Shown here: positions 114 to 28,804 of the stretch, one piece after another
How positions within the stretch are numbered: the stretch's first letter is position 1
Layout of the letters: the number at the start of each line of letters is the position of its first letter
Sequence record: SRR20825006_1258
Reading direction: 5' to 3' (one strand)
Length of the DNA stretch: 34,546 bases
Translations under genes and position numbers: made by a program
Notes under the pieces: generated by a model
Seen by the model: the letters and a program-made list of their open reading frames with translations, nothing else
What the model was told of the DNA's origin: nothing
Databases searched by the model: none

Positions 114-1601
114 ATGAAACATCTTAAACTAACCATTTTACTATTAACCACAATTTGCTTTACTGCCTGTAATCAAAGACTGAGCGAAACCGTTAATACA
201 GACAGATTAAGTTCATCCATAAATGAATATCTAACGGCATGTGAGTCAAATGGATTCAACGGTGCTGTTTTAGTTACAAAAGGAGACAGTATTATTCTTA
301 ACAAAGGTTATGGATTCGCCAATAAGGAAAAGTCTTTTGCAAATACTCCCAAAACGGTATATGATATCTGTTCTGTAACGAAGCAGTTTACGGGAGCGGC
401 AATATTAAAATTAGCCGAGAACGAAAAACTAGAGCTAACCGATTCTTTAATTACATATTTTAATGATTTGCCCGTTGATAAACAAAACATCACCATTCAC
501 CATTTACTCACACATTCGGGTGGCTTTGGGCACGACATAGGCAAAGGTGATTTTGACCATATCCCTGAAAAACAGTATTTCCAGCAATTGTTTGATACCG
601 ACTTGCAGTTCACACCGGGAGAAAAATATGAGTACTCTAACTCTGGCTACAGTATTCTTGGACGAATAATAGAAATCGTATCAGGCAAAAGCTATGAAAG
701 CTATATAAGTGAAGATTTATTTAAACCAGCAGGGATGTCGCAAACTGGTTATCTTCTGCCTGAATGGGATAGTGATTTAGTGGCTAATGAATATTTGTAT
801 AATGTGATAAATAAAGAGAACCACATTTCCAAATATCAGAAGGATGGAAAAATTGCTTGGGCTCTAAAAGCAAATGGAGGTATTCACTCCACCCAAGAAG
901 ATATGTACAAATGGTATTTGGCATTAAAAAACAATACAGTATTAAACAAACAATCTATAGAAAAATTAACCGCACCTCACATTCTCGAGTATGAAGACGA
1001 ATCGAGTTATTATGGTTATGGTTGGGTAACATTTCAGTCAGATAGAGGTACAAAAGTAATTACTCATAATGGTTTTAATGGTGTTTCTTATTACGAGTTT
1101 ATTTGGTTTCCAGAAGAAGATGCTCTTATTCTATTTTCAACCAATTCGTCAACTCGCGAATCTTCAAGAATACCGTTTGAATTAGAAAAAATACTCTTTA
1201 ATGAGAATTATAAAGCTAAACCTATCTCAAAAAGTAAGGTTAGTGAGTTGCTAAAATTTTCCGAAAACTATACGGGAGATTTGATTTTTTTAGGGAAAGA
1301 ATTAAAGCAAGAATTCGAAGCAAAGTTGAATAATCCTACTTATTTAAACGGTTTAAGTGGGATTTATTTAAGGGCGAATAAAATTAACTATGCTGTTGTC
1401 ATTACGGAACTCAATACCGAATTATTTCCAAATGATGGTAATGTATGGGATACTATGGGAGATGTATACCTTGCTGATAAACAAAATGAAAAGGCAATAT
1501 ATAGTTATAAAAAAGCATTGGAATTTAAACCTGAAAATGATGATTGCTTTTGGTGTGAGAATTCTTCCTCTCAGCTTAAAAATTTGGAGACAAAAAAATA
1601 A
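114..1601 (+). CDS. Serine hydrolase (beta-lactamase/AmpC-like family) lipoprotein with C-terminal TPR
   Basis: Lipobox FTAC, SxxK (SVTK), LLTHSGG, YxN (YSN) and HNG motifs. The C-terminal segment NVWDTMGDVY...AIYSYKKALE is TPR-like. Confidence 0.9.
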   Translation: MKHLKLTILLLTTICFTACNQRLSETVNTDRLSSSINEYLTACESNGFNGAVLVTKGDSIILNKGYGFANKEKSFANTPKTVYDICSVTKQFTGAAILKLAENEKLELTDSLITYFNDLPVDKQNITIHHLLTHSGGFGHDIGKGDFDHIPEKQYFQQLFDTDLQFTPGEKYEYSNSGYSILGRIIEIVSGKSYESYISEDLFKPAGMSQTGYLLPEWDSDLVANEYLYNVINKENHISKYQKDGKIAWALKANGGIHSTQEDMYKWYLALKNNTVLNKQSIEKLTAPHILEYEDESSYYGYGWVTFQSDRGTKVITHNGFNGVSYYEFIWFPEEDALILFSTNSSTRESSRIPFELEKILFNENYKAKPISKSKVSELLKFSENYTGDLIFLGKELKQEFEAKLNNPTYLNGLSGIYLRANKINYAVVITELNTELFPNDGNVWDTMGDVYLADKQNEKAIYSYKKALEFKPENDDCFWCENSSSQLKNLETKK

Positions 1602-3188: not shown

Positions 3189-3959
3189 ATGAAAAAAACA
3201 ACTTTGTTCTCAACACTTTTAATCGCTTTTGGTATTTCAAATGGTATTAATGCCGCGATAATTTACAACAATATTGCAGATGTAACTCTTGCTAGTGGAG
3301 GAACCATTGACATTGACTTTAATGGCGGAGGTGCTGAATTCACTTTTACAGACATTGGATTTGGTACTGTAGAGCCTGGGATCTTTTTCAATTCTCAAGA
3401 TGATCATCTTACCACAATTAGCGCCAATGAATGGGATGTTCTTAAGGGTTTAACTGCAGGAACAACTATAGATGCAAATGCAGGGTTTTATGATCAAGGA
3501 GATGCTTTTATCGATCCATTTTGGGGAACAACGTTATTCCCGACAGTAGACACATACTTAGGAGCACAATTCAAAATTGGCGCAAACACGCATTATGGTT
3601 GGATTCTAGTAAATTGGAATGCGGCGGGAACCTTTATCGTGAAAAGCTATGCGTACGATGATGTGCCTAGTAAATCGATTAAAGCAGGGGAAACTTCGAG
3701 TACGACTGCAAATGTCCGAACCTTGGAAAGCATTGATGTATCGGTTTATCCAAACCCTTGTTTTGATGTTTTAACAATCAATTTAAATGAATCAACTAAT
3801 GCCGAGCTTAACATTTATAATTTGACTGGTAAAAACGTTTTACAAGTTTCATTTAACGCCCAAACCAAAGTAGATGTTAGAAACTTAATTTCTGGAGTTT
3901 ATATTCTTAACATAACTACAGATAAAGGAACATTTCAAAATCGGATAATAGTCGAATAA
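3189..3959 (+). CDS. Secreted protein with T9SS type A C-terminal sorting domain
   Basis: Sec signal peptide and a THYGWI motif domain. The CTD reads VYPNP...IYNLTGK...L.SGVYIL...RIIVE. Confidence 0.88.
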   Translation: MKKTTLFSTLLIAFGISNGINAAIIYNNIADVTLASGGTIDIDFNGGGAEFTFTDIGFGTVEPGIFFNSQDDHLTTISANEWDVLKGLTAGTTIDANAGFYDQGDAFIDPFWGTTLFPTVDTYLGAQFKIGANTHYGWILVNWNAAGTFIVKSYAYDDVPSKSIKAGETSSTTANVRTLESIDVSVYPNPCFDVLTINLNESTNAELNIYNLTGKNVLQVSFNAQTKVDVRNLISGVYILNITTDKGTFQNRIIVE

Positions 3960-5100: not shown

Positions 5101-5193
5101 ACTAACAAGAAACCTAAATAGTCACTTATCTATTTGAATTGCGACAGGCGTGTTTTCAGTAGATTAGTAACCGCTATTTATCAAACTAAATTT

Positions 5194-8100
5194 ATGACTA
5201 AAAAAAGCCTAACGCTATTTGTTATGTTAGCGTTACTAGTGAGCAGTTCATTCTCGTTCGCTCAGGAAAAGAAAGCCCAGCTGGGGTGCGGGACATCAGA
5301 ATTGATGGAAACGCTCTCAAAATCCAACCCGAATGTGATCCCCAGCATGCAGCAACTGGAGGAAAGAATTACAAAGTATTACGGTGCCAATCCAATTGGT
5401 GCACAACAAAAATCCACTCCGAATTCAATGCTCACCATTCCAGTGGTGGTTACTATCGTTCATAACGGAGGCCCAGAAAACATAAGTGATGTTCAAGTCT
5501 TGAGTCAAATCAACGCCTTAAACACTTACTTTAATCCTTACGGTTTGAATTTTTGTTTAGCAACACAACAAGGTAACGTTCCTTTTTCTGGAACTACACC
5601 TGGGATTTTCAGAGTTCAAAATGCTGGTTTAACAAACCATTCGAGCACTGCAATATCGGCGCTCATGGCAACTTCAAACCTGAACCCTGCCAATTACTTG
5701 CGCATCTGGGTAGTAAATGAAATTACTTCTCCCGGTTCAAGTGGACAAATCCAAGGGTATGGAACATTTCCTGCTAGTTACACGGATCCAAATCTTGATG
5801 GAATTGTCATGCGTTATACAGCATTTGGAGATCAAGCTACATGTAATTGTGGAGTTTTAAATCCATTGACGAATCAAGGAAAGGTATTAGTACACGAAGT
5901 TGGACATTACCTTGCTCTATACCACACCTTTCAGGATAATTGCTCTGGAATGAATGCAAATGATTGCGCTTCCGCTGGTGATCGTGTATGTGATACACCA
6001 CCCGTACAGCAACCAAATACAGGATGTCCATCTGTAGCTCCAAATTCATGTAATGAACTCTATGGAGTTGATTTACCAGATGACATCAATAACTACATGG
6101 ATTATACGAATGAGGCGTGTCTCAATAGCTTCACAGACGGACAAAAAAGCCGAATGTATGCAACGATTTCACAAAGTAGATCACTTTTAGTTGCGGCATC
6201 TAACTTAACATTTACCGGAGTCAATTGTGCATCGACTGTCCTACCTGGATTTACAGCAGACAACTACGTTCCATGCATTGGCACAACGGTTACATTTACC
6301 GCAAATCCGCTCAACAACGCAACATTTGAATGGGATTTTGGAGACGGAACATCCGCTGTAGGAGCATCTGTGCAACACACCTATACTTCCGCTTTTTCGC
6401 CAGTGACAGTTACTCTAACTGCAACGGTTGGAAATCAATCTGGTTCAACAGTTCAAAATATTGTTGTTAACACATGTGCACCAATTCAAAGCACGAATGC
6501 ACATTGGTTTTTCTGCGATAGAAATGCGTTGGACTTCAGTTCGGGAGCTCCTGTATTTGACAACTCAGCGGTTCTTAATAATACATTCAATCTAACTACC
6601 TCCTCTACAAATCCTAATGGACAAACAGCAAGTGAATCTGCGGCAAGTCAAAGCGACGCTAACGGTAATTTGCTTTTCTATACAGACGGAATCAACGTGT
6701 GGAATAACTTGCATCAATTAATCAACCCATCAACACCATTAGGCGGACACAGAAGTTCTAACGATGGAGTGTTGATTGTTCCAGATCCTGGGAATGCTTC
6801 GGAATACTATGTTTTCACGACGTGTGATGCTGGAATCGCAGCAAGAACTGGATTTACTTATTCAAAAATATCAATTTCGGGAGGTAGCGCACAGCTTGTC
6901 GCTGGTCAAATTAACATTCCAATTCTCGCTCCTTCTGCATTAGACGTACGTTTGGCCAATTCTGGGGCAATCATCGCTGGTGAAGGAATTACTGCTATTG
7001 CAAAATCTGATGGATTCTACATTATTGCGGAAGCAATGAACTTGAACAGAACTGGATCATATTTGTTGCGATTTGACCTCACATCTGCAGGTTTACAATT
7101 CGGAACTCAAATTTCCATTTATTCATGGAGCTCTCAAATGTGGGATTTAAACTCAGATGCTTTCGAAGTTAAAGCGTCTCCAAATGGCAGACACATTGCA
7201 TTTAAAGGAACGCAAGTAAATCCAGGAAGAGTAATTGATTTCGATCCATGTACAGGATTGTTCTCGAATGTTCGAAATATCACGGGAGTGAATTCTCAAA
7301 TTATTTTTGCTTTTAGTCCGAACTCAAAGTTTTTGTATGCGATCAACTATAATCCTGCAGGAAGTAGTCTTTACCAAATTAAGGTAACCGATCCAGCAAT
7401 GACGGCAGTTCAAGTTAGTCAACTGTTCACAAATACAGCGGGAATGGCCGTTGGACCTGATGATAAGATTTATTTATCGGCGAGAGGGTCGTATATTCTT
7501 GAGACTATCCATTCTCCAAATGAAGAGTCTACCCCAGCGCTACCAAATGCTTGTCTTTACACTCCAAATGGACCGGTTGTTTTCAATAGTCCAAATATTC
7601 AGTCGCTGTACTACACTCTACCAAACACGATAGTAGCATCAAGCGCAACTGTTTATTCGAATGAAATAACTCATGCTCAAGATTTTGGTGATTGCTTCAC
7701 ATTTGAATTTGAAGCCATTGTTTGTGCTAATTCATTTAGTTGGAATTTTGGAGATCCTCAATCTGGAAGTAATACATCTACATTGTCGACTCCATCGCAT
7801 ACCTTTTCAGCACCTGGAACGTATACGGTAACGCTAGTTGCGAACGGTATAACAATCACACACACTGTCGAAGTAGCTCCTCAACCTCAATTCACTGGAG
7901 CAACAACAATTTGTCCAGCAAACGGAATGACAGTTAACTACGGTTTCTCAGTTCCAATTGGATACACTTGTTCATGGGCTGTTACGAATGGAACAATTAA
8001 TGGTCTTAATACGCAGTCGAATGTGGATGTTACATGGACTTCACTTCCTGCTACTTTAACACTTTCGATGACCAATATCGCGAACGGGTGCACAACATCA

Positions 8101-9297
8101 ACTACAGTAAACATTACTGAATCATGTGAAACTCCTTGTTTGGATGACGCAATAATAACCGTTCTCTTAAACCCAAATTGCGTATTTGCATTTGACATCA
8201 TCACTTCAACGCCACTACCAAACGGTTATGTTTCGTACCAATGGAATTTTGGCGATGGAGGGATTTCAAGTCAAGCACAACCTACTCATACGTACGCCAA
8301 TCAAGGAACTTACCAAGTGTGCGTGTTGGTTAGAATATATAACAACAAAGGTGTCGTAATTTGCCAAAGGGAAATTTGTACAACGCTTAAAGTGAAATGT
8401 TCGCCTGTTGTAGAGTGTCCTTGCACTGTGAAACCTGAATTCACTTATGACTTTGATGCAAAGGAGTGTCTATTCTCATTTTCCGCAGATCCAGGAGTAC
8501 CAGAATGTACTCAATATGTGAACTACTACTGGGATTTTGGTGATGGAACAACTTCCATGGGACAGTTTGTAAACCATATTTATTCCAATCCAGGAGCTTA
8601 TCTCGTTACGTTACTTGTTACCGTGACTGACGAAAACAACAAGATCATTTGTCAAGAAAAAGTATCTCAAGAAGTGGTTTCAGAATGTTCAGGTTTCTGC
8701 GAATGTAAAATCGACCCAGAAATCATCGTTGATTATGCATACGGAGCGACAACACAGTGTGATCTTCGCTTCTCGTCATCTGTAAAACCTACATGTACAA
8801 ACATAACTTCTATCGAATGGTACGTAAATGGCATACTCTATCCTCCAACTCAAGACATATACGTCACTTTGAATGTAAACACGCCGTATGAAATTTGTCT
8901 GGTAGTTACTGGTGCGGATAGCGATGGAAAACTGTGTAAAGAAAAGGTATGCGTTGAATATTTCACAACGGACTGCTATCCAATTCAACAGCAGTTACTT
9001 CCTATGGACAAAAACGAAGATGGAAGTAATGGCAACATTTCGAAAGAAATAGAGATGATGTTGTACCCAAACCCTGCAAAGGATCAACTTACAATCGATT
9101 TTAAAACTAGAATCGAAGAACCGTTTACAGTAATCGTTCGTTCTATGCAAGGACAAGTTGTACAAGAGTTAGTCGTTTCAGAAGAAATGAGCTCAACTGT
9201 TTTACTCGATGTTTCAACACTTACAGACGGAGTTTATTCTATTGAAGTAAAAGGAACAACATTCACAATGAATAAGCGATTCGTTGTAATGCAATAG
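5194..9297 (+). CDS. M43 (pappalysin/ulilysin-like) zinc metalloprotease with PKD domains, beta-propeller-like region and T9SS CTD
   Basis: A signal peptide follows the ATG at 5194 (preferred over the TTG at 5134). Motifs: CGT cysteine switch, HEVGHYLALYH zinc motif, DRVCDTP, Met-turn NYMDY, four WxFGD PKD motifs and CTD LYPNP...GVYSI...KRFVV. Confidence 0.92.
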   Translation: MTKKSLTLFVMLALLVSSSFSFAQEKKAQLGCGTSELMETLSKSNPNVIPSMQQLEERITKYYGANPIGAQQKSTPNSMLTIPVVVTIVHNGGPENISDVQVLSQINALNTYFNPYGLNFCLATQQGNVPFSGTTPGIFRVQNAGLTNHSSTAISALMATSNLNPANYLRIWVVNEITSPGSSGQIQGYGTFPASYTDPNLDGIVMRYTAFGDQATCNCGVLNPLTNQGKVLVHEVGHYLALYHTFQDNCSGMNANDCASAGDRVCDTPPVQQPNTGCPSVAPNSCNELYGVDLPDDINNYMDYTNEACLNSFTDGQKSRMYATISQSRSLLVAASNLTFTGVNCASTVLPGFTADNYVPCIGTTVTFTANPLNNATFEWDFGDGTSAVGASVQHTYTSAFSPVTVTLTATVGNQSGSTVQNIVVNTCAPIQSTNAHWFFCDRNALDFSSGAPVFDNSAVLNNTFNLTTSSTNPNGQTASESAASQSDANGNLLFYTDGINVWNNLHQLINPSTPLGGHRSSNDGVLIVPDPGNASEYYVFTTCDAGIAARTGFTYSKISISGGSAQLVAGQINIPILAPSALDVRLANSGAIIAGEGITAIAKSDGFYIIAEAMNLNRTGSYLLRFDLTSAGLQFGTQISIYSWSSQMWDLNSDAFEVKASPNGRHIAFKGTQVNPGRVIDFDPCTGLFSNVRNITGVNSQIIFAFSPNSKFLYAINYNPAGSSLYQIKVTDPAMTAVQVSQLFTNTAGMAVGPDDKIYLSARGSYILETIHSPNEESTPALPNACLYTPNGPVVFNSPNIQSLYYTLPNTIVASSATVYSNEITHAQDFGDCFTFEFEAIVCANSFSWNFGDPQSGSNTSTLSTPSHTFSAPGTYTVTLVANGITITHTVEVAPQPQFTGATTICPANGMTVNYGFSVPIGYTCSWAVTNGTINGLNTQSNVDVTWTSLPATLTLSMTNIANGCTTSTTVNITESCETPCLDDAIITVLLNPNCVFAFDIITSTPLPNGYVSYQWNFGDGGISSQAQPTHTYANQGTYQVCVLVRIYNNKGVVICQREICTTLKVKCSPVVECPCTVKPEFTYDFDAKECLFSFSADPGVPECTQYVNYYWDFGDGTTSMGQFVNHIYSNPGAYLVTLLVTVTDENNKIICQEKVSQEVVSECSGFCECKIDPEIIVDYAYGATTQCDLRFSSSVKPTCTNITSIEWYVNGILYPPTQDIYVTLNVNTPYEICLVVTGADSDGKLCKEKVCVEYFTTDCYPIQQQLLPMDKNEDGSNGNISKEIEMMLYPNPAKDQLTIDFKTRIEEPFTVIVRSMQGQVVQELVVSEEMSSTVLLDVSTLTDGVYSIEVKGTTFTMNKRFVVMQ

Positions 9298-12696: not shown

Positions 12697-13130
12697 ATTC
12701 GACTAATTGCACACTGTGGTTCAATTTGCTCATACCATTGAGAAGTTTCTTTACTGTTATCCGATAAATGAAATCCACATTCCGAACCGCCAATTGTATA
12801 AAGCGTTTTTGGTGAAGAGATGAAATAAATATTCTCAAAACCTTTCTCAATTTTTCGTCCCAATTTAACTTCTTCAGGTCGCTTTTCTGAATAATAAAAC
12901 CACGTTCTTTCTCCATCTTCGCCTTCAATGAGCTTTAAAAACTCTCCTGTGCCCAGATCGTCGGATTTAAAAATGAAAGTCGTTGGATCAACAGGTACTT
13001 CTTCAACTTCTTCGGGCATCATTACTTCCTCAGAATTTCCCTCAATAGACTGATTTTCTGGTTCAGCCGCGCATCCGACCATCAATAATCCCAAACCAAT
13101 TGTAAAAAGAAGCTTCTCAAAACGTTTCAT
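12693..13130 (-). CDS. Hypothetical lipoprotein
   Basis: Signal peptide with lipobox MVGC, followed by an acidic linker. Confidence 0.8.
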   Translation of the reverse strand: MKRFEKLLFTIGLGLLMVGCAAEPENQSIEGNSEEVMMPEEVEEVPVDPTTFIFKSDDLGTGEFLKLIEGEDGERTWFYYSEKRPEEVKLGRKIEKGFENIYFISSPKTLYTIGGSECGFHLSDNSKETSQWYEQIEPQCAISRI

Positions 13131-13227
13131 ATTCTAAATTTTAGATCAAAATAGCCAATTTTTTCAAATCGCTTACTCCCAAGTTGTGCTATTTTTACAA
13201 TTGATTAAATCCTGCATAACTCAGTCC

Positions 13228-14247
13228 ATGAAATTCTTCTGTTGCCTTGTTCTATTATCGCTTTTCGCCTGTTCTACTTCAGAAAATGTGAGTGAGCCTA
13301 ATGAAGTAATTTGGAAATCAACAGTTGATTCTTTGCTCATCAATAGCGACTTTAATGGCGTTATCTTGATCCAGAAAGATGACAAAACAATCTACTCAAA
13401 CACCAAAGGTTTTAGCAACTTCGACGCTAAAACCAAACTAAAACTCAGTGATCAATTCGTGATTGGCTCAATTAGCAAACAAATTACCACAGTTTTGGTC
13501 ATGAGAGCTAAAGAAAAGGGCAAAATCGACTTAAACCAAACCATCGATAAGTATCTTCCAGAACTTCTGCAACCGTGGGCAAAAGAAGTCACCATTCATC
13601 ATCTGCTCACGCACACACACGGAATCGTTTCGGAAGACGCGCCTCTTGAATTCAAACCAGGAAGCCAATTCAGTTATTCCCAACTCGGTTATGAACTTCT
13701 TGCTCAAGTTTTGGAGAACGTAGAACAACAATCATTTCAGGAATTGTCGACATCGCTATTTCGTGAAAACGGACTAAACGATACATTTCATCCAGATGAC
13801 GAATCTTACATTCGACTTGTGAAAGGATACGAAACTTTAGAAAACGGAACCGTTTCTGTCGCATTGAATAGTCTAAAAAACTATGTTGCCGCTGGATCAT
13901 TTATTTCTACAGCGTCCGATTTAAGTAAATGGAATTACTTGTTGCACAGCGGAAAACTAGTCAAAAAACCAACTTATGAATTAATGCAAATGGATCATGC
14001 TACGAGAATTCATCCCATTTTTGATTCGATTCAATACGGTTATGGATTGGTGTTTAAAAAAGGACAAAACGCTATTGAAATAGGGACTTTTGGCTACGCG
14101 CCAGGATTTGTTTCGACCTCCTATTTCTATCCGAAATCTAAGATTAGTCTCGTAGTACTCTCCAATTTAGCAAACGATCCGAGTGATTTTAAAAAGATCT
14201 TTTGGATCCATACTGAGTTGATGAAAATCATGAAGAAATCGAACTAA
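13228..14247 (+). CDS. Serine hydrolase (beta-lactamase-like) lipoprotein
   Basis: Lipobox LFAC after the ATG at 13228, with SISK, LLTHTHG and FSYSQLGY motifs. Confidence 0.88.
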   Translation: MKFFCCLVLLSLFACSTSENVSEPNEVIWKSTVDSLLINSDFNGVILIQKDDKTIYSNTKGFSNFDAKTKLKLSDQFVIGSISKQITTVLVMRAKEKGKIDLNQTIDKYLPELLQPWAKEVTIHHLLTHTHGIVSEDAPLEFKPGSQFSYSQLGYELLAQVLENVEQQSFQELSTSLFRENGLNDTFHPDDESYIRLVKGYETLENGTVSVALNSLKNYVAAGSFISTASDLSKWNYLLHSGKLVKKPTYELMQMDHATRIHPIFDSIQYGYGLVFKKGQNAIEIGTFGYAPGFVSTSYFYPKSKISLVVLSNLANDPSDFKKIFWIHTELMKIMKKSN

Positions 14248-22140: not shown

Positions 22141-22176
22141 AAAGAAAAAACCGCCAAATCACTTCGAAATGGCGGT
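22141..22176 (-). terminator. Rho-independent terminator of the minus-strand cluster
   Basis: The minus strand reads ACCGCCA-loop-TGGCGGT-TTTTTCTTT, 20 nt after the stop at 22197. Confidence 0.8.
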
Positions 22177-22196
22177 CTAGTATTAATCTATAAAAT

Positions 22197-22676
22197 TTAC
22201 TTTTTCTTTCCTTCAATTTCAATTCTAACTTCCTGTCCAGCAAAGCCAACAGTAGAAGATGAAGTAAAGATCATACGCTTTTTACTTTGTTTCTCAACGT
22301 CGTATCGACCAGTAATGGCGCTCGAAAAATAATCCATTGAATCAAGATCGGTAACATCACATTCGATGCAATACAAACGGTGGTTCAATTGCAGTTTTTT
22401 TGCTTTGTCTTGGAATTGCCACTCGAAAGTACTAGCTCCGTAAGGACTGTTCCCGCTCCACTGAAACGTTTGAATGGTGTCATAAATGTTCCCTTGACTC
22501 ACTACCCAAGAACCTTTAAAAGATGACTCGACATCACCAATTTTCACCGATTTCACGGTCCAATAAACGCTTCCACTAAGCGGTTGGCGTTGTAGTTTTT
22601 CAGAGCGGTTTTTAATCTTATCACAGCTAGCGAGAGTGAGAGAAAGAATGGTAATTGACAAAATAATGGTTCTCAT
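22197..22676 (-). CDS. Small lipoprotein, lipocalin-like; paralogue of 22728-23177
   Basis: Lipobox LASC. Shares WxV, IYD, FxWQF, GxYxVxK and MxFTSxxTxGFxG with its neighbour. Confidence 0.8.
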   Translation of the reverse strand: MRTIILSITILSLTLASCDKIKNRSEKLQRQPLSGSVYWTVKSVKIGDVESSFKGSWVVSQGNIYDTIQTFQWSGNSPYGASTFEWQFQDKAKKLQLNHRLYCIECDVTDLDSMDYFSSAITGRYDVEKQSKKRMIFTSSSTVGFAGQEVRIEIEGKKK

Positions 22677-22727
22677 AGCTACGTTATTTGCAAAATCTTA
22701 GTAATTAATTAGTAAGATAATTTCATT

Positions 22728-23177
22728 TTAAATCTTCGTTATTTTAATGTCTACTACCTTCCCATAAAAACCAATGGTACGTGTTGAAGTGAAATGCATT
22801 TCTTCTTTTTTATGTTTAAGGACTTCATAGATGCCCGACAAATAATAAGTTTGAAAAACTAAGTCAGAATGTGATGAATTAATGCAATTTGAGTCAATCT
22901 CAGCTGCAATTTGGAAATTCTTTCCTTTTTCTCTGAATTGCCATGAAAAATTGGAAACTTCATTTTCATACCCCCAAATCGCCAACGGAACGGAATCGTA
23001 TATGCTCATCTTGCCCGTAACATTCCACTGTCCTAAGAATCCGTAATTTGCCCCATCAACGGTAATCTCATCAACTCGCCAAACATCTCCTTTCATGAGT
23101 TTTTTGGAATATGATTTGTCCTTGTTGCAGCCAAATAAACCAATGATTATTATTAAAAGCAATGTCAAATTTTTCAT
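22728..23177 (-). CDS. Small lipoprotein, lipocalin-like; paralogue of 22197-22676
   Basis: Lipobox LFGC and the same shared motifs. Its start overlaps the stop of the 902-aa gene. Confidence 0.8.
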   Translation of the reverse strand: MKNLTLLLIIIIGLFGCNKDKSYSKKLMKGDVWRVDEITVDGANYGFLGQWNVTGKMSIYDSVPLAIWGYENEVSNFSWQFREKGKNFQIAAEIDSNCINSSHSDLVFQTYYLSGIYEVLKHKKEEMHFTSTRTIGFYGKVVDIKITKI

Positions 23178-25882
23178 TTTACAATTATTAGTGGTTGAGA
23201 AAAAGTTCCAGTATTAGAAAACAATATTACTTGGTACATACCAGCTTGGATTGTCGTTAAGTCCAATTCTATTGTGTCTCCATTAAGAACGTATTTAAAC
23301 ATTGCTTTTCTTCCAGATATATCATAAATCTCTACACGTTCGTTACCAAAAGAAGTTGATAACTTTATAATTCCTGAGTTACTTGCAGGATTTGGAAAGA
23401 CACTGAAAAAGAATTCTGTTTGCTTAAAAATGGGTAAATATTCAATTTCTGGAGTAACTAAATTTGTATTTTCTTTTGGGGACGGATTGGATCTATCATT
23501 ATAAATTGAACCATTGCAGAAATTAGCTATTTCTTTGGGTGTTGGATAAGTATCAACCTCTTCCATACAACTTAATGCGAGGGACGGTACAATTTCAAGT
23601 ACTATTTCTGGGTCTACAAAAGATTCAGGGCTAACAATTATATGCTTAGCAGCTTGAAATGTAACTTTTGAATTGCTAGGAAGGTTGGTCAAAGGTTTAT
23701 TAATGTAAATATTTCCCGTTGCCTGAATTATATGATTTCCAGATGAGAATGAAACGTCTTCCCAAACATAAATATCTCCCAGTACCGTAAACCCATCGGA
23801 TATTGTTTCATCTTCAAGTATTGAGTTTGTGCTGTATCCACTTAAATATGGTGATAAATCGATGGGAAGCGTGACTTCAATTTGTTGAAATGAAGGATGA
23901 GCTTCATTCCAATATAAAGTTCCACTTACGGTATAGTTGTCGGAAGAAAAGCGGTTAGTTTTCACTCCAGGAAAAGTGTGAATCATAATTATTTGATCGA
24001 TATTACTGTTGGGATCAGGATTAATAGGTTCTAGTATCACTTTTACCCTCAATCTTGGATTAATTATTTTTGAATAACTAAATATCGGATAATTTTTAAT
24101 ACAATTTTGACCTAAAAAAGGGCTGGCAATTCTCGCAGTATCCCACCCGCTAGCATCTCTTATTTGCAGTTCTAAACCCACGGACTCAAGATAAGCTTCA
24201 CGATCATCAAATGATGTGGAGTAAAATGCATTTCTATAATTAAGAAGGAAGGTATCCTTCATATCCTCAAAATAGCTGAAAGGACCAGGCATCATTGGCC
24301 CCTGTAATTGATAAGTAATAGAGTTTTCAAGATTATTAAACTCTATTTGATAATCGACGTCGATGATTTGTAGTCCTGAGGCTTCATTTAGAACGATTTT
24401 AGGTAACTCTTTAAGAGTTAATTGTTGAATATTTGGAAATACAGGCATTGTCAAATTAGACGCATCTTGAATACCTAAACTTGGTCCCAAATCAATTTGT
24501 CCAACATACAAGGTTGCTGGATTATTAACGCTATATTCCACGATTTCAAACTTAGGTTGTTCAAATAAATTCCAAACACCTAAAATTTCATCGTAAATTG
24601 GGTTTGTAAAAAGAATGTCACCTTGTCCTTGGGCAATTTTACTCCCTGGAACTCTTAAGGCATTATTAACATACGGAGAACTTACAGTAATTTGACCTGT
24701 TACGTTAACTTTTAATTGGGATTCAGTTATTGTCGGTTGTTTTATGGCTTCAAGCCCTTTTGGACTGTCATTTGTTAGAGCGTCATAATCATCTCCTAAT
24801 TTAGTCACTGTGGTGACTAACGTAGATGCCAAGTTTAAGAACATATTTACTTTGGGTACCTCGAAAAATAATTTACCTAGAATTAAGGCTAAATTGACTG
24901 CCTTTTTTTTTCCTATAATTTTGCCAGAGTTGTTCGCAAAATTCTGTCCTGCTGTCTGAAGAGCTACTCCATCGTCATATCCTTTGTTTGCACTGTTAAG
25001 TATGCCAGTTATACCATTAATAACTCCACTTCCAAATGCAGCGTAATCATGAATCTCACCGAAGAATCCATTTACACTTGTTTCATTAGGATTGGCTCCA
25101 GAAGGGTTAGCATCAACAATTGTTGTTAATGTACCATTCAATTGCAGTTGAACTTCCAAGTTATTAATTAAGCCTGCTTGAAAATACCAATCTCCAACTA
25201 GACCACAAGTACAAGCGTCAAAGAGCACGTTGAAATCAGCATAAAGCCAATAATAGTTGTTGTTAACACCAGTATTTTCATATGTGTTCGGGGCAAAATG
25301 TGCAGCGTCTTTTTGCAAATTGTCGTTCGCGAACGTGTATTCTCCTAGTTGATTTAAAATTGCTGTTTGTCTCACAGTTGGGAAATTTGTGTTAAACGCA
25401 GGCGTCATTGTTAAATGGAGACCTGCCGCCGTAAAAGGAAAACTCCCCGCATTAATAATGTTCACAAAAACCCGAACAGTACCAGTAAACCTGTTATAAA
25501 GCATGAAATAAGGGGTAGATACACCTTGAGCTGTTGATCCAAACTTTCTGTAAAGTAACTCCCAACCATCTTCCGATCTAAAATCTTTCTCAATAGAATT
25601 CGCGAGGGAATAAGTGTTTGCGTTCCCGTTTTGATCAAAAAAGGGACTGCGAATTGTTACGGGTGTACCAGCAGTTCCTGAGGTATTGGATAAATATACG
25701 GTGAATTCTTCCATTCTCCAATCCCATTGTCTATCTCCGCTTGGATCATTTGGGTTGCTATAGTTTTCTGGGTTAGTGGAAATTCCAGTAGGTTCGCATC
25801 CAGTTATAGGAACGCTTACCGATCCTTGGCTCAGGCTGTATATTGCAATAAGCAGTGAAATGAGCGATAGTATAAATTTCAT
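23174..25882 (-). CDS. Large T9SS-secreted protein of unknown function
   Basis: Signal peptide and CTD VFPNP...IYDISGR...AGMYQV...LIIVK. No catalytic motif was recognised. Confidence 0.85.
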   Translation of the reverse strand: MKFILSLISLLIAIYSLSQGSVSVPITGCEPTGISTNPENYSNPNDPSGDRQWDWRMEEFTVYLSNTSGTAGTPVTIRSPFFDQNGNANTYSLANSIEKDFRSEDGWELLYRKFGSTAQGVSTPYFMLYNRFTGTVRVFVNIINAGSFPFTAAGLHLTMTPAFNTNFPTVRQTAILNQLGEYTFANDNLQKDAAHFAPNTYENTGVNNNYYWLYADFNVLFDACTCGLVGDWYFQAGLINNLEVQLQLNGTLTTIVDANPSGANPNETSVNGFFGEIHDYAAFGSGVINGITGILNSANKGYDDGVALQTAGQNFANNSGKIIGKKKAVNLALILGKLFFEVPKVNMFLNLASTLVTTVTKLGDDYDALTNDSPKGLEAIKQPTITESQLKVNVTGQITVSSPYVNNALRVPGSKIAQGQGDILFTNPIYDEILGVWNLFEQPKFEIVEYSVNNPATLYVGQIDLGPSLGIQDASNLTMPVFPNIQQLTLKELPKIVLNEASGLQIIDVDYQIEFNNLENSITYQLQGPMMPGPFSYFEDMKDTFLLNYRNAFYSTSFDDREAYLESVGLELQIRDASGWDTARIASPFLGQNCIKNYPIFSYSKIINPRLRVKVILEPINPDPNSNIDQIIMIHTFPGVKTNRFSSDNYTVSGTLYWNEAHPSFQQIEVTLPIDLSPYLSGYSTNSILEDETISDGFTVLGDIYVWEDVSFSSGNHIIQATGNIYINKPLTNLPSNSKVTFQAAKHIIVSPESFVDPEIVLEIVPSLALSCMEEVDTYPTPKEIANFCNGSIYNDRSNPSPKENTNLVTPEIEYLPIFKQTEFFFSVFPNPASNSGIIKLSTSFGNERVEIYDISGRKAMFKYVLNGDTIELDLTTIQAGMYQVILFSNTGTFSQPLIIVK

Positions 25883-25884
25883 AA

Positions 25885-26748
25885 TTATATTTTTTTACCA
25901 ACAAACACGCGCTCCGTATACTCAGAGCCCAGTTGGAACGGTGTGATGATTTCTTTTGTGTAATAGGTTATCTTTATTTCTCGGTTATTTCGATCGTATA
26001 TGCCTCGAGATCTTTCAGGGAAAAAAGAACTCTGGTTTCCCACGTAAATGATATCATTATATGGAGCTGTCAGATCTCCAATCCCCTCAAAGCAATAACT
26101 TGAACTACCAAATTGCCTAACAAAATTAACCGGGTTAATTTTTCCATTTGGCAGGTTTTTAATGACTTCATTGCAAGCATAGGGCGGCGTTAAAAATGAA
26201 TAGAACCGAGTTAATGTGTCAATTTCTATAGTGAAATAATCATTCGGAGCTTCGCTTGAGTAACCATAATAACTTCCCCAAAGTGGCGAGGGAGAAACGT
26301 TCGTTATAGTCAGATTTCTATAGATTGTGTCTATCCCGTCATCTCCAGGAATGCATATTGTATTTGGTTTACTTTTCATAACAAGGCGCACAGAAATGTC
26401 TACAGGCCCTGAAAAATACAGGCCAAAGCTTTTCGTTGTTTTTAAGGTCGGATCATTTCCAACTTTCCATTCATAGCTAATTGCATCGTTATAATTCGCA
26501 TCAAAATAAACATAGGTATCATTGATCGAATCAAAATTGGCAGGGTCTCCATCGGCATAATATACTGGCATAATGATCGTGTCAAGATCAATCTTTTCTT
26601 CTCCGAACTTTTCTCCCATGAAGAAGGTACTTCGTTGCTTTTGGAGACAATCACAGATGTTTTCGGGTTCTCCAATCACGGGTTGAACTTTTTTACATCC
26701 AACAAAAAGTACAGGGAGAAGAAGGGCTGAAAAGATAAGTGGTTTCAT
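25885..26748 (-). CDS. Lipoprotein with PKD-like domain; paralogue of 27983-28804
   Basis: Lipobox FVGC, with CDC, YEWKVG, ISVRLV and NTICIPGDDGIDTIYR motifs. Confidence 0.82.
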   Translation of the reverse strand: MKPLIFSALLLPVLFVGCKKVQPVIGEPENICDCLQKQRSTFFMGEKFGEEKIDLDTIIMPVYYADGDPANFDSINDTYVYFDANYNDAISYEWKVGNDPTLKTTKSFGLYFSGPVDISVRLVMKSKPNTICIPGDDGIDTIYRNLTITNVSPSPLWGSYYGYSSEAPNDYFTIEIDTLTRFYSFLTPPYACNEVIKNLPNGKINPVNFVRQFGSSSYCFEGIGDLTAPYNDIIYVGNQSSFFPERSRGIYDRNNREIKITYYTKEIITPFQLGSEYTERVFVGKKI

Positions 26749-26754
26749 AATTTT

Positions 26755-27687
26755 TTATTTGTCTACTTCCAAGTTATTGATTCTATCTTCTAATTCCAAA
26801 ACATACAGGGTTAACTCTTCTACTTTTTCGAGTAAAAGTCGGTTCATTTCACCCAAATCAACAGGAGCACTTGATAGCTCTTCCGCAGATGGTATATTTG
26901 GTAAATGATGATTTGTAGTAACATAAGTGCGCAATTCAGTTAAGGGCATCAAATCATATCCCGAAAAGAATACATAATCAGGGATTGGATCTAAGGTTGT
27001 TGTGTATTTACGTGCAAACACGTGCCCTGCGCCATTTACTGTGAAGTTTTTGGTATTCGCATCACTTCCGAAAACTTCAATTGCGCTACTCGTATTTTGA
27101 GGAACTTTTACGCGTAATCCGTATTTCAATGAATTGTTTGTTTGGATATACAATCCATTATCTGTTGATGCTGTTCTTACGTTGAACAAAGCAAATGAAC
27201 CATCACTGGAAGCTGTAGTGTTACCTAACCATGCACGCTTTGTTGAATTAGAAAATCGTAATGCTAAATCAGGTACTGTGAAAAGCATATCTCCTGCCGA
27301 TTGATTCCTCACCATAAAGTTTAACTGACTCATTTGTAGAACGGCACCTTCCATGTCTGAACGACCTGTCATTGTATTAGTAAGACCAATGCGTGAGGTT
27401 ACGCCGTAATTTGTTGAACTTTTATTCGTTGCAATGGGTTGTCCATTATTATCATTTGTTATAAGTCCGCTCACTGCGCCTGATGAAATATAGTCTGACA
27501 CACCGTGAACATGTAAATTGTAATTTGGAAGCGGGGTGTTTACAGTTGTTGTGGTGGTTTTTGTTCCAATTCCAATGTAACCAGCTTGCGCTGAGTTTGA
27601 GGTGCTAGGAAAGTACCAATTGGTATTGTATTGTGCGAAGACTCCACATGATGGGAATAAAAGTAAGGCGATAATTGTCTTTTTCAT
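26755..27687 (-). CDS. Exported tail-fibre-like protein with C-terminal S74/intramolecular-chaperone-like coiled-coil domain
   Basis: Signal peptide, a GYIGIGT...P...LHVHG repeat unit and the C-terminus PDYVF...LMPL.EL..Y...NHHLPNIPSA...LGEMNRLLLEKVEELTLY. Confidence 0.78.
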   Translation of the reverse strand: MKKTIIALLLFPSCGVFAQYNTNWYFPSTSNSAQAGYIGIGTKTTTTTVNTPLPNYNLHVHGVSDYISSGAVSGLITNDNNGQPIATNKSSTNYGVTSRIGLTNTMTGRSDMEGAVLQMSQLNFMVRNQSAGDMLFTVPDLALRFSNSTKRAWLGNTTASSDGSFALFNVRTASTDNGLYIQTNNSLKYGLRVKVPQNTSSAIEVFGSDANTKNFTVNGAGHVFARKYTTTLDPIPDYVFFSGYDLMPLTELRTYVTTNHHLPNIPSAEELSSAPVDLGEMNRLLLEKVEELTLYVLELEDRINNLEVDK

Positions 27688-27876
27688 AATGGTTAAATTA
27701 AGTTATTACGAGAATAAAAATGGGTCAAAGAATTGAATTGATAAACGAAGAATCAAACATTCTTTATGTGTTTTGGCAAAAAAATAAAATCGTAGAGTAT
27801 TATTTTAAAATTGAGTTGCACAACTGCTAGATCAATGTTTAGAAACAAGCTACTACTTAGGTATGCTATGTCAGTA

Positions 27877-27960
27877 CTAACTATCATTTGGACAGTTGTA
27901 TTGACTGAAACTACATGAATGGAGAAGCGTTATATAAAGTAAAAGAGATAAAATTTTCAT
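27877..27960 (-). pseudogene. Signal-peptide-only remnant of a secreted protein gene
   Basis: MKILSLLLYITLLHSCSFSQYNCPNDS-stop begins 22 nt after the stop of the upstream lipoprotein. It resembles the N-terminus of the 902-aa protein. Confidence 0.5.
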
Positions 27961-27982
27961 AATAAGTATTAGGTTTATGTAG

Positions 27983-28804
27983 TTAAAGTTTTCTCCCAAC
28001 CATTTTAAATTCTTGATAAGTTGTGGGATTAATCCCATCCCATTGACAGCGACTGAATTCAAAGATCGCAACCCCATCTATTCTGTTTAAGAATACACCG
28101 CCTATACAGTCTTTAAGAAGTCCAGTATCCGAAATCCAAAGTCCACGGTAGGTTTTTAAAGTTTGATCACAGCGAGTTACGGATATTGCATCACTTCCCA
28201 TTCCGTCGTAATTGTATAAGTCAATTTCTTTTTCAATAGCAGTTGGGCGATCAACATAATCGATAATCACATCAAAACTATCGGGTAAATGAGCGGATTT
28301 CATGCGGTAAGTACCTTCCATCAATGTTGTATCATTAATATACTGGGAAGTCAAATCACATTGTCCATAAGGCTGCACATGAAATGTTCGAGAAATAGAA
28401 TCATATCCGTCATCGTTCGGCAAACAAATTGCATTAGTCGCTTTTCGTACTACGAGTGAAACGGTAATGTCTTGACCGCCCCAGATCGCTGAAAAATTGC
28501 GCCCAACTTCCTCGGTGTTCAAAATCTCATTGCCAATGTACCACGTATATTCTGCGTTCTCCTCTTTTGCACGGAAAATGACATTTTTCTCGTGAAAAAT
28601 CGTATCCGAATCCGTTCCAACAGGATCAAACTGTGGTAAAGACTCCAACTCTAAAATTTCAAAGGCTGCAGAGACTTCTGTTGCGCAATCACAGTCTACA
28701 TTCACAGGTGTAAGATTGGGTTGTTCATGTTTCTTACATCCAACAAAAAGTACTAAGAACAATGAGACGAGAAAAAATGGTTTAAATACGCAGAAAGTGT
28801 GCAT
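27983..28804 (-). CDS. Lipoprotein with PKD-like domain; paralogue of 25885-26748
   Basis: Lipobox FVGC, with CDC, YTWYIG, ITVSLVV and NAICLPNDDGYDSISR motifs. Confidence 0.82.
   Translation of the reverse strand: MHTFCVFKPFFLVSLFLVLFVGCKKHEQPNLTPVNVDCDCATEVSAAFEILELESLPQFDPVGTDSDTIFHEKNVIFRAKEENAEYTWYIGNEILNTEEVGRNFSAIWGGQDITVSLVVRKATNAICLPNDDGYDSISRTFHVQPYGQCDLTSQYINDTTLMEGTYRMKSAHLPDSFDVIIDYVDRPTAIEKEIDLYNYDGMGSDAISVTRCDQTLKTYRGLWISDTGLLKDCIGGVFLNRIDGVAIFEFSRCQWDGINPTTYQEFKMVGRKL

Follow-up and report, generated by a model that had tools for sequence, protein, structure and literature searches.

Flavobacterium SprB and RemA are surface adhesins that are exported through a type IX secretion system (T9SS). 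Aureispira GhpA, the 'grappling hook', is described as a large T9SS-dependent surface cargo that forms an extracellular structure (PMC12428579), and the mosaic adhesive trimer (MAT) fibres of Bdellovibrio bacteriovorus (Bd2133, Bd1334 and Bd3182; 8OND, 8OML and 8OJN) are described as trimeric beta-helix fibres whose ends carry either an S74 chaperone or domains that substitute for it (PMC10769870) and that are surface-exposed and adhesive (PMC10769870, PMC12428579). Here we analyse a block of genes at positions 22197-28804 of a 34,546-nucleotide stretch of DNA from sequence record SRR20825006_1258 (the whole stretch is called the window below), in which a fibre protein, a lipoprotein (LIPO) and a 902-residue T9SS cargo (BIG) are encoded one after another. 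Judged by gene neighbourhoods in other genomes, the block is a real, conserved cassette of Bacteroidota that also occurs in genomes labelled Ignavibacteria. Our preferred reading, to which we give a probability of about one half, is that the fibre, LIPO and BIG build a surface fibre or adhesin module. The three genes and their parts are as follows.

26755-27687 (-), fibre protein: 310 aa, with a Sec signal, one fibre motif near the N-terminus, a variable middle and a C-terminal domain that is conserved
26758-26982 (-), C-terminal PDYVF domain of the fibre: residues ~236-310, 'PDYVF ... HLP.(V/I)PSA ... KVEELTLY', with a coiled-coil-like helix at the end
25885-26748 (-), lipoprotein B, the LIPO partner: 287 aa, 2-nt gap to the downstream BIG gene
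23174-25882 (-), BIG: 902-aa T9SS type-A cargo with no recognised fold
25109-25795 (-), predicted N-terminal beta-sandwich of BIG: residues ~30-258, the best-conserved part of the superfamily
24836-25093 (-), predicted helical insertion of BIG: residues ~264-349, Gly/Ala/Asn-rich amphipathic helices of low model confidence
23921-24736 (-), predicted central beta-rich domains of BIG: residues ~383-654
23591-23878 (-), predicted short-strand repeat region of BIG: residues ~669-764
23177-23407 (-), T9SS type-A C-terminal sorting domain of BIG: residues 826-902

The fibre family has in common with the MAT fibres the repeat G-N-(V/L)-G-(I/L)-G-T ... L-x-V-x-G, and in the MAT fibres and the window fibre alike a Sec signal is present (read by eye in the latter) and a dedicated secretion domain is absent. 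Moreover, the division of the MAT fibres into S74-capped and non-S74-capped forms is mirrored by the presence of PDYVF-capped and S74-capped fibres in one and the same slot of the cassette. However, the MAT fibres are about 1000 aa long, with a conserved N-terminal domain and a variable C-terminal tip, whereas the fibres of the cassette have 200-590 aa, of which the C-terminal ~90 are conserved and the N-terminal and middle parts vary. The MAT fibres are trimeric in solved structures, and the cassette fibre is called trimeric-type from sequence kinship. A lipoprotein or T9SS partner is not described for the MAT genes in the main text of PMC10769870, where the words 'operon' and 'lipoprotein' occur 0 times, whereas the cassette has both partners. 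The proposed role of BIG resembles that of GhpA, but GhpA, SprB and RemA are single giant proteins, whereas the cassette combines a mid-sized cargo with separate fibre and lipoprotein genes; the likeness is one of description.

Conservation of the triad

Contigs from one genome per species were scanned with the BIG alignment, which yielded 114 relatives confirmed by tblastn; 80 loci were kept, and their open reading frames (ORFs) were called, compared with the window proteins and clustered. T9SS domains of the BIG relatives were detected with a hidden Markov model built from the close family. Just three clusters recurred widely, namely BIG (77 loci), LIPO (50 genes in 38 loci) and the fibre (30 genes in 28 loci). 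A BIG ORF was present in 76 of the 80 loci, and 37 BIGs carried a T9SS domain. Where such a BIG was preceded by more than 2200 nt of sequence (32 loci), LIPO lay directly upstream in 25 loci, a fibre gene was found in 25 and both were found in 22. The original prediction had made its case depend on whether these families co-occur in other genomes; they do, and full fibre-LIPO-BIG triads, in the same order and on the same strand, were found in 25 of 76 loci. These triads lie in records titled Crocinitomicaceae, Fluviicola, Flavobacteriales, Taibaiella, Chitinophaga, Raineyaceae, Bacteroidia and Ignavibacteria, and for the 18 non-close triads BIG identity has a median of ~24%. Taibaiella chishuiensis CGMCC 1.12700 has two copies of the cassette (L016 and L020). 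Several BIG, LIPO and fibre cluster matches have longest contigs of equal size (51270, 13943, 76851, 8785, 20109 and 7654), which suggests that they lie on the same contigs. Relatives of BIG that are short (480-660 aa), lack a T9SS domain and in most cases have a lipobox were accompanied by LIPO or the fibre in 0 of 22 cases, and the conserved triad is specific to the T9SS form of BIG.

The pairwise identity matrices of BIG and LIPO correlate with r = 0.83 over 23 triads, a value that 0 of 2000 permutations reached, whereas BIG and the fibre give r = 0.53 for the C-terminal domain and r = 0.64 for the N-terminal part of the fibre. When the five closest triads are removed, the corresponding values are 0.78 for BIG-LIPO, 0.33 for the C-terminal domain and 0.43 for the N-terminal part. 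By this comparison, LIPO and BIG travel together more faithfully than the fibre does. That a lipoprotein and a T9SS protein form a conserved unit had been predicted, and both the adjacency in 25 of the 32 informative loci and this correlation bear it out. LIPO occurs in one to three tandem copies (L004, L035, L044 and L052), and whole [LIPO+BIG] units are tandemly repeated in L022, L024 and L052; the repeating unit once proposed therefore exists in other genomes, with the amendment that the fibre gene is not an interloper between units but a third conserved member.

It could be argued that the three are unrelated exported proteins that merely travel together and have no joint function: we infer the joint action of the products, the other two families are far smaller than that of the fibre, and partial cassettes exist. 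However, the same order and strand recur in 25 of 76 loci over lineages so distant that BIG has diverged to the median identity given above, the gene spacing is near zero or overlapping, and it is only the T9SS form of BIG that shows the association. A chance grouping is thus unlikely, and we give it hardly any weight.

In L008, L009, L010, L011, L022 and L029, an intact LIPO gene is followed by a BIG that is broken up into two to four successive ORFs, which reflects either frameshifted pseudogenes or errors of assembly. On one Hymenobacter humi contig, L010 and L011 form a nearly identical pair ~35 kb apart.

The fibre protein and its C-terminal domain

The window fibre has, to the eye, one G-x-I-G-I-G-T ... 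L-H-V-x-G motif. A profile of the family, built from 28 sequences, matches the MAT fibres 8ond (Bd2133, E 1.2e-6) and 8oml (Bd1334, E 9.2e-4) in their beta-helix repeat region. In the 28 aligned fibres, an N-terminal and middle part of ~110 to 500 aa, often with G-N-V-G-I-G-T ... L-x-V-x-G motifs, is combined with a short, strongly conserved C-terminal domain, in which nine residues are invariant (D237, V239, F240, L262, P263, K288, E290, E291 and L294). The PDYVF domain has no Pfam or NCBIfam family, and none of the 120 fibre relatives listed carries a Pfam domain. The family is large, as at least 6,751 of 8,000 scored candidates pass E 0.001; one relative is annotated 'bZIP transcription factor' in one source, evidently because of the terminal helix of the fibre.

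The fibre had been called S74-like. S74-chaperone tail fibres (PF13884) do resemble the window fibre in that a coiled-coil-like helix comes after a conserved C-terminal cap, but PF13884 matches neither the window fibre (E <= 0.1) nor any of the 28 family members (E <= 1). The PDYVF domain was also tried as an S74 homologue against two genuine S74 fibres, and this candidate was rejected at an hhalign probability of 14.6%. In two loci, L018 (E 2.3e-17) and L021 (E 3.6e-12), a genuine Peptidase_S74 fibre of ~230 aa does occupy the fibre slot, which indicates that the slot accepts fibres with interchangeable C-terminal caps; an S-D-x-R-L-K start was seen in two S74 fibres and is, by eye, absent from the window fibre. 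The identity as a fibre is thus supported at the level of the family, and the term S74-like holds as a positional analogy only.

The fibre architecture and the S74-capped fibres in the same slot of two loci might instead point to a domesticated phage tail-fibre module, such as a decoy against phages, a tailocin or a prophage remnant. The nearest named Atlas clusters to the fibre are S74 (0.89) and YadA_head (0.88), which we take as leads only, and the weak structural matches of BIG in BFVD include tail and tail-fibre proteins. However, those BFVD matches do not exceed a TM-score of 0.13 and a probability of 0.21, no fibre match was found by tblastn in 50,697 phage records, and none of six block proteins belongs to a PHROGs family. 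The block contains no phage structural, lysis or integrase genes in Pfam and NCBIfam scans, and all its products carry bacterial export signals; the window fibre, with neither a PF13884 match nor phage relatives, differs in this from S74 tail fibres. We regard a phage origin as unlikely, indeed as one of the two least probable explanations considered here.

The fibre C-terminal domain has weak matches in 5 plasmids, all to a 'hypothetical protein' or to unannotated sequence. One of these plasmids, NZ_AP027060.1, is from Haliovirga abyssi of the Fusobacteriota (39% over 77 aa, E 1e-8), which suggests that the domain may not be confined to Bacteroidota.

The T9SS cargo and its lipoprotein partner

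Residues 828-900 of BIG form a sorting domain that matches PF18962 (35.4 bits, cut-off 27, E 1.3e-8) and TIGR04183 (39.6 bits, cut-off 23, E 3.8e-10), so that the protein is a T9SS cargo as predicted; in a profile search, it also matches the solved C-terminal domains (CTDs) 8glk, 8glj and 8qb1. This type-A domain is the sole library family that Pfam, NCBIfam and PHROGs scans detect in the block, and these scans show no enzyme family for any block product, in agreement with the earlier remark that no enzyme motif is recognisable. The N-terminus of BIG, MKFILSLISLLIAIYSLS/QGS, looks by eye like a Sec signal peptide.

BIG and LIPO are similarly rare. Among 5.8 billion clusters, BIG has 23 close relatives, the best of which is 56% identical, and lipoprotein B (lipoB) has 21, all of them unnamed or 'hypothetical'. 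The close BIG relatives align over their full length with a mean column identity of 47%, and distant relatives match residues 1-902 or 9-901. A search with BIG against 72,556 plasmids gave zero matches. In the LIPO family, the pattern C..DPC..Y.W..G..C.P.DDG.DT is conserved, and C18, W94 and G158 are invariant in an alignment of 52 sequences. The family has no Pfam, NCBIfam or PDB sequence match, and its two window members have none in PHROGs. The label 'PKD-like' that had been given to lipoprotein A (lipoA) and lipoB does not hold: neither matches PF00801 or PF18911, and 2 of 52 family members do so at E 0.06-0.12, which is far short of the cut-off. As had been supposed, the families are undescribed: there is no Pfam or NCBIfam model for BIG, LIPO or the fibre C-terminal domain, and the triad itself is apparently undescribed, since no description was found in the literature searched under the terms used.

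A first model of BIG, made with the 23-sequence alignment, had a predicted local distance difference test (pLDDT) score of 71.6, and a fold search with it gave just immunoglobulin-like matches to the sorting domain. Residues 20-810 were re-modelled with an alignment of 78 sequences, which gave a confident model (pLDDT 79.9, predicted TM-score 0.84). Foldseek found no fold relative of this model in the PDB (best TM-score 0.11 by query, probability <= 0.23) or in BFVD, and the ESM Atlas returned nothing usable for residues 20-820. The weak PDB fold matches were to integrin legs, complement C3 and Gram-positive pilins and adhesins, none of them real. The predicted chain of beta-sandwich-type domains nevertheless points to a surface-protein architecture, though there is no true fold match.

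The model consists of an N-terminal beta-sandwich, a helical insertion, more beta-rich domains, short-strand repeats and a small helical, Cys-containing piece before the linker to the sorting domain. The N-terminal beta-sandwich, where the tblastn matches of distant relatives begin, has pLDDT mostly of 85-97 and contains the superfamily-invariant residues P80, G106, W107, Y129 and N130 (902-aa numbering). In the helical insertion, helices are modelled at 251-318 of the residues-20-810 model with pLDDT of 35-67. All 78 of the 78 aligned superfamily members have an insertion of 107-224 aa at this site, including transporter-linked lipoproteins, which argues for a structural feature of the family rather than one specific to a weapon. 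The strands of the central domains have pLDDT mostly of 82-98, with blocks of 48-60 in between; here G435 is invariant, and P412, P428, Y430, P443 and N499 are near-invariant. The repeat region shows regular strands of 3-6 residues (pLDDT mostly 90-97), and residues ~669-764 are, in our reading of the strand pattern rather than from a fold match, probably beta-helix-like. Across the superfamily, conservation falls on W, Y, N, D, R, P and G, and a conserved set of H, S or E is not seen; BIG therefore fits binding better than catalysis. A complex prediction for BIG (residues 1-725 of the 20-810 construct) with lipoB (residues 19-287), run without alignments, scored 0.03 against a mark of 0.34, a result that speaks neither for nor against binding.

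A proposed model of a surface fibre

In the surface fibre or adhesin module that we favour, BIG would pass the outer membrane via the T9SS and remain at the cell surface, and LIPO would be its lipid-anchored, co-inherited partner. The fibre, as the more freely exchanged member, would probably be the distal or recognition element, held or displayed with the help of the LIPO-BIG pair, and the three together would constitute a surface fibre or adhesin. The surface location of the three products, their mutual contact and the adhesive role are proposed from gene order and family kinship. The copy in the window would be a lineage-expanded one, with an extra LIPO paralogue and a 27-codon stump upstream and two small lipoproteins downstream as lineage-specific accessories. 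In three loci (L014, L033 and L038), BIG is followed by a gene of ~210 aa; the copies in L014 and L038 match PF13568, a family of outer-membrane beta-barrels, and this points to an envelope assembly. A different small barrel-like gene lies between the fibre and LIPO genes in L021 and L049, and the L021 copy has a weak PagL match.

More speculatively, the triad could be a new surface appendage of Bacteroidota in which a trimeric fibre devoid of a secretion domain is exported, anchored or capped by the LIPO-BIG pair, whose fold would be new among solved structures, and in which PDYVF, a domain found in thousands of Bacteroidota proteins, is a new, non-S74 module for capping or docking the fibre. 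We consider this version possible but tentative; if it is true, it would provide a T9SS 'hitch-hiking' or docking route for fibres.

Several points weigh against our reading. All loci were gathered via BIG, so that any occurrence of LIPO or the fibre apart from BIG lies outside the counts. Four of the 32 informative loci have neither partner (L015, L017, L027 and L055), LIPO occurs without a PDYVF fibre in 11 loci, and the fibre occurs without LIPO in 3. The matrix correlations partly reflect shared descent, and physical contact among the triad products is something that we infer. The window fibre sequence alone gives no match to a MAT structure at E <= 1. The fibre has no T9SS domain to take it through the outer membrane, which is the main gap in the model; furthermore, fibre relatives number in the thousands whereas BIG and LIPO are rare, which implies that most such fibres work without the pair. 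Surface exposure of LIPO is a guess from acidic residues that follow the lipid cysteine in some relatives, and the window copies (CKKV.., CKKH..) do not have these residues. Finally, BIG has no recognised fold, so that an enzymatic or toxic activity of the protein is possible.

Bacteroidota put many proteins on display by way of the T9SS; little is understood of how those without its sorting domain come to the surface or are kept there. The cassette ties a fibre family of thousands of members, for which Pfam has no model, to a rare, co-inherited pair of a lipoprotein and a T9SS cargo. If the three products form one structure, they would offer a testable model of fibre display for the phylum and give names to three uncharacterised families, and the fibres of the triads could be adhesins or else receptors for phages or prey.

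Distant relatives of BIG

BIG-type genes adjoin genes for TonB-dependent transporters (Plug and barrel domains) in at least nine loci (L027, L050, L054, L056, L058, L063, L067, L070 and L072). In several of these, the direct neighbour of the transporter gene encodes a shorter lipoprotein (376-485 aa) that is grouped with BIG by clustering only and is not itself the relative with the N-terminal module, and several Sphingobacteriaceae-type TonB loci have a divergent ABC ATPase/permease pair nearby. The N-terminal module of BIG is also found in lipoprotein-like genes beside the transporter genes of Sphingobacteriaceae-type loci.

This proximity raises the question of whether BIG is a surface binder that passes a nutrient or other ligand to an outer-membrane transporter, with LIPO and the fibre as accessory binders. 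In pairs of a TonB-dependent transporter and a surface lipoprotein (SusC/SusD-like), the lipoprotein would correspond to those BIG-type proteins that bear a lipobox by a simple pattern and are encoded beside transporters in Sphingobacteriaceae-type loci. The conserved residues of BIG are aromatic and polar, as in a binding site, and the relatives of the Bacteroides and Alistipes type are lipoproteins that match transporter partners in size. However, there is no TonB-dependent transporter gene in the block or its flanks, nor any beside the triad in a gene-order map of the 25 triad loci. The BIG of the window is a T9SS cargo and not a lipoprotein, and no match to the SusD family was found for BIG-type proteins. 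A fibre gene is not known as a usual part of uptake loci. It is the distant relatives alone that suggest nutrient capture, and for the window cassette we consider such a role doubtful.

Lipoproteins of 510-560 aa that contain the N-terminal module of BIG (510-620 aa when Bacteroides, Alistipes, Pedobacter and others are taken together) are followed directly by a ~100-130-aa lipoprotein of a family of its own in eight loci (L046, L059, L060, L061, L062, L071, L077 and L078), from records titled Bacteroides, Alistipes, Phocaeicola, Pedobacter, Mangrovibacterium and Marinilabiliaceae. Neither protein has a Pfam family, and the partner is unrelated to the small lipoproteins of the window. The neighbours of the L061 genes resemble, by eye, the integrase and primase genes of a mobile element. 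Outside Bacteroidota, weak but significant matches to the N-terminal module, which has no Pfam family, occur in L073 (Vibrio sp. Of7-15, E 2e-8) and L065 (a metagenome-assembled genome of Acidobacteriota, E 2e-9).

Accessory genes and genomic setting

On the minus strand, the block reads lipoprotein A, a 27-codon ORF, the 310-aa fibre, lipoprotein B, BIG, two small lipoproteins and a terminator hairpin. The features other than the triad are as follows.

27983-28804 (-), lipoprotein A: 273 aa, LIPO family, a paralogue of lipoprotein B
27877-27960 (-), 27-codon ORF: signal-peptide-like, beginning 22 nt past the lipoA stop
22728-23177 (-), small lipoprotein 1: 149 aa, its start overlapping the BIG stop by 4 nt
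22197-22676 (-), small lipoprotein 2: 159 aa, a paralogue of small lipoprotein 1
22145-22178 (-), intrinsic-terminator-like hairpin (22148-22178) with a U-rich tail, which closes the block

Most of the structural claims of the original prediction were reproduced. The ORF list returned the same layout and gene order and, in the second part of the block, the same intergenic spacing of 6, 2, -4 and 51 nt; the gap between the 27-codon ORF and the fibre gene is 189 nt. The block does run antiparallel to its neighbours, which all lie on the opposite strand: to one side these encode RibBA, a LolD-like ATPase and TIGR02757, to the other a BatA-domain protein and dihydroorotase (PyrC). The predicted terminator was found as well: its hairpin has a folding energy of -16.2 kcal/mol (z -4.79; 1 of 200 shuffles equally stable) and was overlooked by a consensus terminator scan because of its long loop. 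The signal peptides and lipoboxes expected of exported products can be seen in every one of them, as read by eye throughout.

The consensus scan for sigma-70 promoters and terminators counted 29 promoter-like and 7 terminator-like sites, near the shuffle means of 24.7 and 5.0. The Bacteroidota -7 motif TAnnTTTG matches the window 35 times against 42 expected and is absent from the minus strand of the two upstream intergenic regions, a result that is uninformative. The G+C content of the block is 0.34-0.39, against 0.40-0.42 in the adjoining genes and within the overall range of the window. Direct repeats that could be insertion scars were sought around the block; the pairs found were just short, of low identity and within coding DNA, and were rejected as chance.

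Homologues of TIGR02757, BatA and PyrC occur in 0 of the 80 loci. The L001 cassette follows ftsA/ftsZ-like genes (recognised by eye) and yqeY, the L003 cassette adjoins an aminotransferase gene, and the L004 cassette lies between a DUF4920 gene and a MauG-type peroxidase gene. As the closest cassettes thus stand in differing contexts, the location of the cassette is not conserved. The block may be an insertion between the TIGR02757 and BatA-domain genes, as had been proposed; what the relatives show is that the cassette is carried in other contexts as well. The L037 triad lies between a gene for an ArdC-like anti-restriction/zincin protein and an IS110-family transposase gene (6765-7664 and 13087-14115), a hint that mobile DNA can carry the cassette.

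The paralogous lipoproteins A and B are 32% identical (E 2e-17), and lipoA has, by eye, the lipobox LFVGC. Among its relatives, lipoA is closest to the leading member of a tandem LIPO pair in L004 (36% identity, E 5e-30), and lipoA may be a displaced tandem LIPO paralogue. Together with the 27-codon ORF, it could equally represent a decayed [LIPO+BIG] unit, in which the ORF is possibly the stump of a lost BIG-type gene. This ORF had been taken for a truncated secreted gene, but what it shows is just a signal-peptide-like start: a tblastn search of 27600-28100 with the 23 BIG relatives gave a best E of 0.011, with matches outside the ORF. The signal-peptide and lipobox DNA of lipoA and lipoB (28723-28753 and 26682-26712) is 87% identical over 31 nt, while the proteins share the 32% given above; gene conversion or strong constraint on the signal could account for this near-identity.

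The small lipoproteins 1 and 2 are paralogous, as stated in the original prediction (32% identity, E 2e-21), and a profile of their family, searched against 1.84 billion sequences' representative clusters, finds 123 of them at E <= 1e-3. A homologue lies directly after BIG in the closest relatives only (L001, L002 and L003; 3 of 80 loci). Small lipoprotein 1 shows a weak, sub-threshold match to the NCBIfam family Riean_0653 (22 bits against a cut-off of 57), described as a hypothetical protein that is needed for haemolysis yet is not itself haemolytic (PMC7881567).

These two genes are central to an explanation by antagonism, in which BIG would be a T9SS-secreted, membrane-active toxin, the small lipoproteins would confer immunity, and the fibre and LIPO would target or escort the toxin. 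Two paralogous genes right after BIG, the first of them overlapping it, speak for such a system, and a different small lipoprotein follows the BIG relative in the eight loci of other superfamily branches described above. The conserved Gly/Ala/Asn-rich amphipathic helical insertion of BIG, modelled with low confidence as if it changed state, the absence of a recognised fold and the varied genomic contexts of the cassette, with one copy beside an ArdC-like gene and an IS110 transposase, can be read in the same sense. Large exported T9SS-linked proteins with small downstream genes are described in Bacteroidota in the form of TANFOR-domain polymorphic toxins (PMC7073777), which the block resembles in these respects. 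However, BIG has neither a TANFOR domain nor a variable C-terminal toxin module; its relatives align from end to end, so that the polymorphism formerly proposed finds no counterpart in a variable toxin tail. Searches of Pfam, NCBIfam, PHROGs and PDB sequences revealed neither a toxin domain nor an enzyme family, and the fold search gave no real match. No widely conserved downstream immunity gene is apparent in the cassette: the 'immunity-like' lipoproteins of the window type are confined to the 3 loci of close relatives, and other triads end in an outer-membrane barrel gene or in nothing. With this restricted distribution, no toxin domain and no polymorphic tail, the immunity and antagonism reading is weak and in our view improbable, though not without some weight; of the two alternatives once offered, antagonism or surface display, it is surface display that fits the evidence better. 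If BIG should prove to be a toxin, the cassette would represent a new T9SS weapon; the conserved triad and its restriction to T9SS-form cargo hold under either outcome.

Other genes in the window

Two further genes for T9SS type-A cargo lie in the window. One (3189-3959, +) encodes a 256-aa protein with the sorting domain alone (E 4.5e-15); the other (5134-9297, +), in the G+C-richest part of the window (0.40-0.42), encodes a protein of 1387 aa in which a Peptidase_M43 domain and four PKD domains accompany the sorting domain. These additional CTD-bearing genes are in line with a T9SS in the host and would support it indirectly. Genes of the serine beta-lactamase fold (PF00144) are present at 114-1601 (+) and 13186-14247 (+), one of them fused to a tetratricopeptide repeat; they are probably ordinary housekeeping genes of the esterase or penicillin-binding type.

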